Source: Escherichia coli (lineage in GTDB: Bacteria > Pseudomonadota > Gammaproteobacteria > Enterobacterales > Enterobacteriaceae). Taken from it: a DNA stretch of 56,519 nt. The DNA lies in the NCBI RefSeq assembly GCF_003334815.1, contig NZ_QOWO01000027.1, one strand, 5' to 3'. This document shows positions 37,350-37,454 of the stretch, in pieces; the first letter of the stretch is position 1, and each line of letters opens with the position of its first letter. Position numbers and translations under genes: made by a program. The notes beneath the pieces were generated by a model, which was not told the DNA's origin, did no database searches, and saw nothing but the letters and a program-made list of their open reading frames with translations.

Positions 37350-37454
37350 GCCGGATGCGGCGTAAACGCCTTATCCGGCCTACATGATCGTGCAAATTCA
37401 ATAAATTGCAGCGTTCTGTAGGCTGGATAAGATGCGTCAGCATCGCATCCGGCA
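37350..37454. repeat. BIME/RIP-type element: two inverted REPs flanking an IHF-like core
   Basis: gccggatgcggcgtaaacgccttatccggcctac ... aattcaataaattgca ... gtaggctggataagatgcgtcagcatcgcatccggca. The central motif resembles the IHF consensus WATCAANNNNTTR. Confidence 0.75.

Follow-up and report, generated by a model that had tools for sequence, protein, structure and literature searches.

The spacer between the Escherichia coli genes aslB and aslA contains a palindromic element that the original prediction took for the first of two REP-IHF-REP (RIP/BIME) elements with near-identical cores, the second one lying behind uvrD. The question raised by this locus (locus A) and by its counterpart (locus B) is whether they belong to that repeat class and what they do between two converging genes. 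With high confidence, both are regarded here as copies of the known E. coli RIP (RIB, BIME-1-type) repeat, with probable roles in IHF binding and at transcript ends. The RIP/BIME-1 class is already known, and existing catalogues contain the uvrD/yigE copy, under the number REP288 and as a bidirectional terminator. Mildly new are only an apparent polarity rule, to which locus B is a conserved exception, and the finding that locus A has been inverted in situ. The repeat class could be recognised from raw sequence by a first-stage reader. The loci also add details on REP dynamics: the polarity rule, a clean inversion of A at an orthologous site, and deletions starting inside the element. One of the latter, a 1.6-kb aslA deletion starting inside A, is found in about a third of the sequenced E. 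coli.

Two inverted REP pairs between convergent genes

The window, i.e., the whole analysed stretch of 56,519 nucleotides, is close to K-12: its first 50 kb align to MG1655 (NC_000913.3) with 99.97% identity (11 substitutions and a 2-nt insertion), and a 2.1-kb query around locus A has a 100% match to E. coli K-12 genomes. From ~4666 onward, window positions equal MG1655 (NC_000913.3) positions minus 3946870. The insertion, an AT at 4664-4665, affects ilvG (3688-5334), which is an intact 548-codon ORF in the window and a frameshifted pseudogene in MG1655. Because the insertion restores ilvG, the source of the window is an ilvG+ K-12-like strain and not MG1655 itself.

The 158-bp spacer that separates aslB (+ strand, ending at 37323) from aslA (- strand, 37482-39137) contains locus A (37350-37454). 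Locus B (53280-53382) is found in the 146-bp spacer between uvrD (+ strand, ending at 53275) and yigE (- strand, 53422-54186). Both gene pairs are convergent, as had been predicted, and each spacer holds a single unit of the element. The two units, ~105 bp each, are built of two inverted, tail-to-tail REP hairpins with a 34-nt linker between them. The first REP has the end CCTAC, or CCTAA in B, and the second one, after the linker, is inverted and starts with GTAGG. The CTAC/GTAG tails point toward the linker, reading ...GGCCTAC, 34 nt, GTAGGCT... in A and ...GGCCTAA, 34 nt, GTAGGCC... in B. The parts are listed below; "Y" is the name given here to the arm common to all compared elements.

37349-37383, + strand: left arm of locus A, a Y-type REP (TGCCGGATGCGGCGTAAACGCCTTATCCGGCCTAC), an imperfect palindrome with a CTAC end
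37384-37417, + strand: 34-nt L linker of locus A (ATGATCGTGCAAATTCAATAAATTGCAGCGTTCT), which aligns to RIP linkers
37396-37408, + strand: IHF-like core of locus A (ATTCAATAAATTG), agreeing with WATCAANNNNTTR at 12 of 13 positions
37418-37454, - strand: right arm of locus A, the longer GCCGGATGCGATGCTGACGCATC REP variant, inverted, starting with GTAGG on the + strand
53279-53314, + strand: left arm of locus B, a degenerate REP of the GCCGGATGCGGTGCTGCGCACC variant, as in the non-Y arm of A, its tail decayed to TTATTTGGCCTAA
53315-53348, + strand: 34-nt L linker of locus B (AAAATCATTCAGATTCAATAAATTGCAACGTCAT), flipped relative to the arms
53327-53339, + strand: IHF-like core of locus B (ATTCAATAAATTG), agreeing with the consensus at 12 of 13 positions
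53349-53383, - strand: right arm of locus B, a Y-type REP, inverted, GTAGGCCGGATAGGGCGTTTACGCCGCATCCGGCA on the + strand; the hairpin listed as the uvrD:yigE bidirectional terminator

When locus A was aligned to the window with blastn, its similarity to locus B was found to be far above chance. Positions 1-38 of A are the reverse complement of positions 66-103 of B (97% identity, E = 2e-14), which corresponds to the Y-type REP arms, and positions 47-80 of A match positions 48-81 of B on the same strand (88% identity, E = 7e-5), which corresponds to the core and the inner tail. The cores are indeed near-identical, with a 15-mer, ATTCAATAAATTGCA, shared without a mismatch. A repeat search of the window recovered the pair as both a direct (D5) and an inverted (I1) repeat.

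The Y arm, of the 34-nt type GCCGGATGCGGCGTAAACGCC(T/C)TATCCGGCCTAC, is identical or nearly so in every element compared, and the Y arm of A is also present in RIP243. As single-stranded DNA, it folds with -11.0 kcal/mol in A (z = -3.4) and with -10.9 kcal/mol in B (z = -3.8). The non-Y arm is a 31-32-nt variant, beginning with GCCGGATGCGATGCTGACGCATC in A and with GCCGGATGCGGTGCTGCGCACC in B. In B, this arm folds with -5.9 kcal/mol, no better than shuffles; its tail is less decayed in E. whittamii (TTATACGGCCTAC). At the RNA level, each whole element takes the shape of a single long hairpin whose loop contains the linker core, with energies of -67.3 (+ strand) and -60.4 kcal/mol (- strand) for A and of -56.9 (+ strand) and -47.4 kcal/mol (- strand) for B. 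The z-scores of these whole-element folds range from -3.9 to -8.9, and none of the shuffles folded as well.

The pair had also been described as the only sizeable dispersed repeats in the window. This proved to be wrong, as two solitary REPs are present in two other convergent spacers. The one in the rep/gpp spacer was found in the same blastn search (94% identity to the right arm of A, E = 3e-10).

15832-15866, - strand: solitary REP of the sub-type of the A right arm, in the rep/gpp convergent spacer
~10013-10043, + strand: solitary short REP GCCTGATAGCGCTTCGCTTATCAGGCCTAC, in the ilvA/ilvY convergent spacer

Across both spacers, ORFs are just short mechanical ones or out-of-frame runs into the neighbour genes, and a promoter scan gave nothing above chance. 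The MG1655 RefSeq feature tables carry no repeat_region features. Rfam at gathering score has no match at locus A or B, its nine window hits all being elsewhere: the ilv leader (3376-3668, family Rev39_5p_UTR), the TrxA 5' UTR thermometer (18821-18920), GlmZ (39562-39768) and six tRNA genes.

Relation to RIP, BIME-2 and REPIN elements

Elements of this kind were described in 1991-1993. In the work of Oppenheim and of Boccard and Prentki, both of 1993, the RIP (repetitive IHF-binding palindromic element) is reportedly the same element as the RIB (reiterative ihf BIME) and as BIME-1. A BIME-1 is present in single copy and combines a y REP with an inversely oriented z1 REP, the two being separated by a long conserved L linker that frequently has an IHF site (PMC3333891; PMC2817692); in annotations, such elements go by the name "RIP" (PMC2892488; PMC8407004 Table S1). 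The anatomy of A and B is that of the BIME-1 definition and matches the bona fide copies used for comparison, namely RIP243 (dacB/obgE spacer), RIP354 (nadR/ettA spacer) and the RIP right of yhjE (yhjE/yhjG), so that the name originally given to the two elements stands.

A scan of 556 kb of MG1655-like DNA (the window and ten 50-kb pieces) yielded 11 REP pairs of the L type whose linker has an IHF-like core: A, B, dacB/obgE, nadR/ettA, yhjE/yhjG, trpR/yjjX, phr/dtpD, srmB/yfiE, mscS/fbaA, mutT/yacG and cueO/gcd. Ten of them occupy a convergent spacer. Their linkers measure 26-35 nt and can be aligned around (T)GCAAATTCAAnnnnTTGCA. The linker of A aligns with those of RIP243, RIP354, yhjE/yhjG, phr/dtpD, srmB/yfiE and others, and its 22-mer GTGCAAATTCAATAAATTGCAG recurs without a mismatch in the phr/dtpD element; O157:H7, strain E69 and E. 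whittamii all have the core of A in the same form. The Y arms of A and B match those of RIP243, RIP354 and seven further elements. The non-Y arms, GCCGGATGCGATGCTGACGCATCTTATCCAGC in A and GCCGGATGCGGTGCTGCGCACCTTATTTGGC in B, are unlike both partner arms encountered elsewhere, a short GCCTGATGCGCTACGCTTATCAGGC and a long one beginning with GCCTGATGCGACGCT. The short GCCTGATGCGCTACGC arm occurs in five of the 11 elements and is absent as the non-Y arm of A and B. The nine other sampled RIPs have a GCCTGATG-type arm, in contrast to the GCCGGATGCG(A/G)TGCTG.CGCA variant of A and B; this GCCGGATG variant was found in none of the nine.

Judging by their sequence, A and B are well-supported elements of the RIP/BIME-1 type, because of the linker alignment, the 22-nt core in common with phr/dtpD and the convergent spacers of ten of the 11 pairs; the single weakness concerns the non-Y arm, whose type leaves strict BIME-1 typing uncertain. 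With RIP/RIB/BIME-1, they share the inverted REPs around a ~34-nt linker with an IHF consensus, the single copy without tandem amplification, one Y-type arm, and an extragenic position where convergent transcription units end. RIP243 and RIP354, to whose linkers those of A and B can be aligned, are bound by IHF in vivo.

With BIME-2, A and B have the REP family and the extragenic position in common. However, BIME-2 combines a Y and a Z2 REP and has a short S linker without IHF core and tandem arrays, and neither the short linker nor the tandem repetition is seen in A or B; a BIME-2 identity is ruled out by the 34-nt linker, the IHF core and the single unit. BIME-2 elements are cleaved by gyrase and are a strong gyrase site independent of transcription, a behaviour that is a feature of BIME-2 and not of locus A or B. 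Examples of BIME-2 in the sampled DNA are found in sucB/sucC and in the array after yjjV.

The REPINs or REP doublets of Pseudomonas, mobilised by RAYTs, likewise have an inverted REP pair with an embedded spacer as the repeated unit (PMC2817692). They belong to another sequence family, and an IHF site in their spacer is not reported. Unlike the REPINs, the E. coli copies A and B look old and static, being common to E. whittamii as well. Inverted REPs of the y, z1 and z2 types are substrates for in-vitro cleavage by the REP-associated tyrosine transposase (PMC3333891); no gene for it is present in the window.

A search of 100,044 species genomes with the pattern TTCAATAAATTGCANNNNNNTGTAGG gave just four hits: E. 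whittamii with both loci, E. coli E69 with locus A, and one "Alistipes" fragment. The pattern is too strict to list the RIP family, since the four N positions of the IHF core are variable among the other RIPs. The "Alistipes" sequence, CASFSC010000051.1 (5289 bp, a bin contig of an "uncultured Alistipes sp."), is 98.7% identical to E. coli uvrD-yigE-corA, locus B included, and is almost certainly E. coli DNA mis-binned in an Alistipes metagenome-assembled genome.

Probable IHF occupancy and transcript ends

The cores had been predicted to resemble an IHF-binding site. They do so at 12 of 13 positions, and the linkers align with those of IHF-bound RIPs, but the motif alone occurs at chance rate: with at most one mismatch, the 13-mer WATCAANNNNTTR is present 44 times in the window vs. 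41.5 expected. Resemblance to the 13-mer was therefore dropped as evidence by itself. In published footprint data, the 42 strongest in-vivo IHF peaks include those of RIP243 and RIP354 (PMC8407004 Table S1). Neither A nor B appears in this list, and the literature searched yielded no IHF-binding experiment directed at either copy.

A comparison of both loci with IHF ChIP data had been proposed at the outset. The ChIP-chip peaks of Myers et al. 2013 (Table S4) are given in U00096.2 coordinates, which equal NC_000913.3 minus 1977; this offset was checked on the argX, uvrD and yigE/corA entries. The peak at 3981855-3982650 (window 36962-37757) covers locus A, its centre being ~40 nt from the core. 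At locus B, the peak at 3998280-3998410 (window 53387-53517) begins 4 nt beyond the right arm, 48 nt from the core, and does not overlap the core. RIP243 and the srmB/yfiE RIP are also inside peaks of this list, the peaks adding up to 17.4% of the window. Together with the family context, the ChIP-chip data are supportive, though not decisive, of IHF binding at A and B as candidate sites. Most likely, the L core is occupied by IHF, for which the published ChIP-chip data give support at A and are suggestive at B.

In the same list, the yhjE/yhjG RIP (MG1655 3676121-3676217) lies in no peak in spite of its good core (ATTCAATATATTG), so core quality alone does not predict IHF occupancy in these data. 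IHF peaks outside REPs are located at the ilv leader/ilvG promoter (~3395-3704) and at rhlB/trxA (~18305-18953), both in the GeF-seq top list and in the ChIP-chip list.

As for the transcript ends, RNA 3' ends have been mapped directly behind the element at locus B.

53388-53389, + strand: mapped RNA 3' ends of the uvrD strand (Term-seq, Adams et al. 2021 supplement)

These ends, NC_000913.3 4000258 and 4000259 in two separate sheets, are 5-6 nt past the right arm of B. Further downstream, the site 4000389 (window 53519) of the same study is bicyclomycin-sensitive, which indicates Rho-dependent termination ~135 nt beyond locus B. Moreover, the table of a 2026 preprint lists the uvrD:yigE hairpin UCAUGUAGGCCGGAUAGGGCGUUUACGCCGCAUCCGGCAUCUGCGC as a bidirectional terminator overlapping "REP288". 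The public 3'-end data contain no entry for the aslB/aslA spacer; read counts are low for aslB and aslA, as they are for yigE. By a terminator scan, neither spacer has an intrinsic terminator followed by a U-tract. The scan gave no site at all in the A spacer, and its overall number of sites was no higher than in shuffles. The left arm of B received a weak call on its T-rich tail (T tail 5/8), at a rate as in shuffles.

REP hairpins are reported to block exonucleases on Rho-terminated transcripts, Rho acting downstream and the RNA then being trimmed back (PMC6061677), and the uvrD/B data fit this published model. They are equally in line with a report that links REPs in convergent spacers to higher expression of both genes. 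A transcript-stabilising or insulating function had been proposed for both elements. A transcript-end role is supported at B by the Term-seq ends and the terminator list. For insulation in the BIME-1-type sub-class, no evidence was found in the literature; the idea belongs to BIME-2 and gyrase, and gyrase-related behaviour is documented for BIME-2, not for BIME-1 (PMC3333891).

Polarity, population forms and competing readings

The predicted common architecture of A and B is correct as far as the inverted REPs around a 34-nt IHF-core linker are concerned, but the polarity of the linker is opposite in B. Read along the core ATTCAA..TTG (general form WATCAA..TTR), the Y arm is located 5' of the IHF core in ten of the 11 sampled elements, A included, and 3' of it only in B (two-sided binomial p ~0.012). 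The rule is an empirical one, taken from ten of 11 sampled copies, and not a published criterion; A follows it and B does not. The non-Y-proximal end of the B linker, AAAATCATTCAGATTCAA, resembles the usual Y-proximal end, AAAATCGTGCAAATTCAA, and its Y-proximal end resembles the other linker end of A. A flip of the whole B linker gives 15/18 and 10-11/13 matches (by eye) at its two ends. A flip of the central core alone, between TGCAA and TTGCA, was considered and set aside, as the whole-linker flip fits both ends better. The flipped arrangement of B is also present in E. whittamii and is therefore old.

Several forms of the two loci were encountered among 5426 complete E. coli genomes and in E. 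whittamii, which has both elements. The K-12 form of locus A is shared by O157:H7, and this orientation is the usual one within E. coli. Strain 24A16CRGN010, the divergent strain E69 and E. whittamii have the whole element inverted, with boundaries exactly at an 11-bp terminal inverted repeat, TGCCGGATGCG / CGCATCCGGCA. In two other strains, locus A is cut to a single hairpin, by a deletion between the direct repeats GATGCG (382634_2f) or GCCGGAT (JCH767), both of which belong to the REP arms. In ~1760 of the 5426 genomes, the match of locus A ends at window 37419. In the one example fetched, strain H6, window 37420-38998 is gone (1579 bp, most of aslA), the left breakpoint lying within the GTAG of the right arm of A; in the annotation of H6, aslA is a partial pseudogene and aslB has a frameshift.

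The full element of locus B is present in 3011 genomes and not full in ~2400 (~45%). In the ST131 and O157:H7 examples, a 903-nt gene annotated as SAM hydrolase/SAM-dependent halogenase family is found between uvrD and yigE, and in the ST131 example (6397-7435 of the fetched piece) uvrD is followed only by a short perfect hairpin with a 13-bp stem, TGCCGGATGCGGTG-CGCTA-CACCGCATCCGGCA. K-12 and E. whittamii are without this gene and have the full locus B. The 15-nt core and most of the linker are the same in K-12 and E. whittamii, with flanks diverged by ~8-9%. Neither copy is indispensable, since about a third of the genomes have lost A together with aslA and ~45% are without a full B. The population patterns agree with earlier reports on BIME-1, which is present or absent among isolates and has 71% of its length in strain-variable "loops" (PMC1187871). 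Such forms would be expected from the inverted and direct repeats inside the element; the structures are observed, and the crossovers are the probable route to them.

In the preferred reading of the two loci as RIP copies, they would descend from old non-autonomous REP-derived elements that were handled by the REP-associated tyrosine transposase and that, as the literature suggests, settled in the 3' spacers of convergent genes. On the DNA, IHF bound to the L core would bend the spacer sharply. On the RNA, transcripts from either gene would fold into a very stable hairpin, formed by one REP or by the paired arms, which may be the mark of a stable 3' end. At uvrD, transcription appears to run on until Rho stops it ~135 nt downstream, and 3' exonucleases would then trim the transcript to the hairpin, following the model of Dar and Sorek. 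Because of its inverted arms, the element is probably prone to recombination. If the crossover falls in the outer heads, the whole element would be flipped, as at locus A in other strains, and if it falls in the inner tails, only the linker would be, giving the arrangement of locus B; the short direct repeats within the arms would allow deletion to a single hairpin.

Other explanations differ in how much of this evidence they accommodate. It is unlikely, yet worth serious consideration, that the two loci are selfish or neutral relics, i.e., decaying non-autonomous REP pairs without host function, with IHF occupancy and RNA ends as by-products. The degenerate left arm of B, with its CTAA tail and a fold no better than shuffles, is what decay would look like; both loci are dispensable and highly polymorphic in the surveyed genomes, most of the BIME-1 length falls in strain-variable loops (PMC1187871), and the transposase cleaves the REP types concerned (PMC3333891). 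However, a core and linker unchanged between K-12 and E. whittamii amid diverged flanks, the strong bias toward convergent spacers, and the mapped RNA 3' end and terminator call at locus B speak against mere relics. That the loci are plain intrinsic (Rho-independent) terminators, their similarity to the repeat being incidental, is improbable. Stable G+C-rich hairpins do stand right behind two stop codons, a weak site exists in the left arm of B (GGTGCTGCGCACC then TTATTTGG), and SEnd-seq-based lists name the B hairpin a bidirectional terminator. The main hairpins, however, have no U-tract, the scan of the A spacer is empty and the site count is as in shuffles; read-through downstream of B is Rho-sensitive; and the similarity is not incidental, being that to a genome-wide repeat family for which the locus-A query has a median of 27 megablast places per genome.

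The chance that A and B resemble each other merely as G+C-rich palindromes is practically nil. The IHF 13-mer does occur at the rate expected by chance, but the two blastn matches within the window do not, and the same arms and linker recur at nine other sampled MG1655 loci, by which this reading is refuted. A more far-reaching proposal is that RIPs are small invertible segments, in which the whole element (A) or the IHF linker only (B) flips in situ, so that the bend direction would be heritable and switchable. It is built on the comparison of the inverted A in E. whittamii, E69 and 24A16CRGN010 with K-12 and is considered very improbable; if true, the asymmetric IHF bend relative to the converging genes would affect termination or local topology.

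The K-12 sequence also differs just past the aslB stop (37324-37340), where it is 9 nt shorter than in the other strains compared. These have AAAAGCGGCCATTTTGTGGCCGCC, a small hairpin, 3' of aslB, and K-12 has GAAATCGGCGGCCGCC; the aslB stop codon itself is TAG in K-12 and TAA in the other strains.
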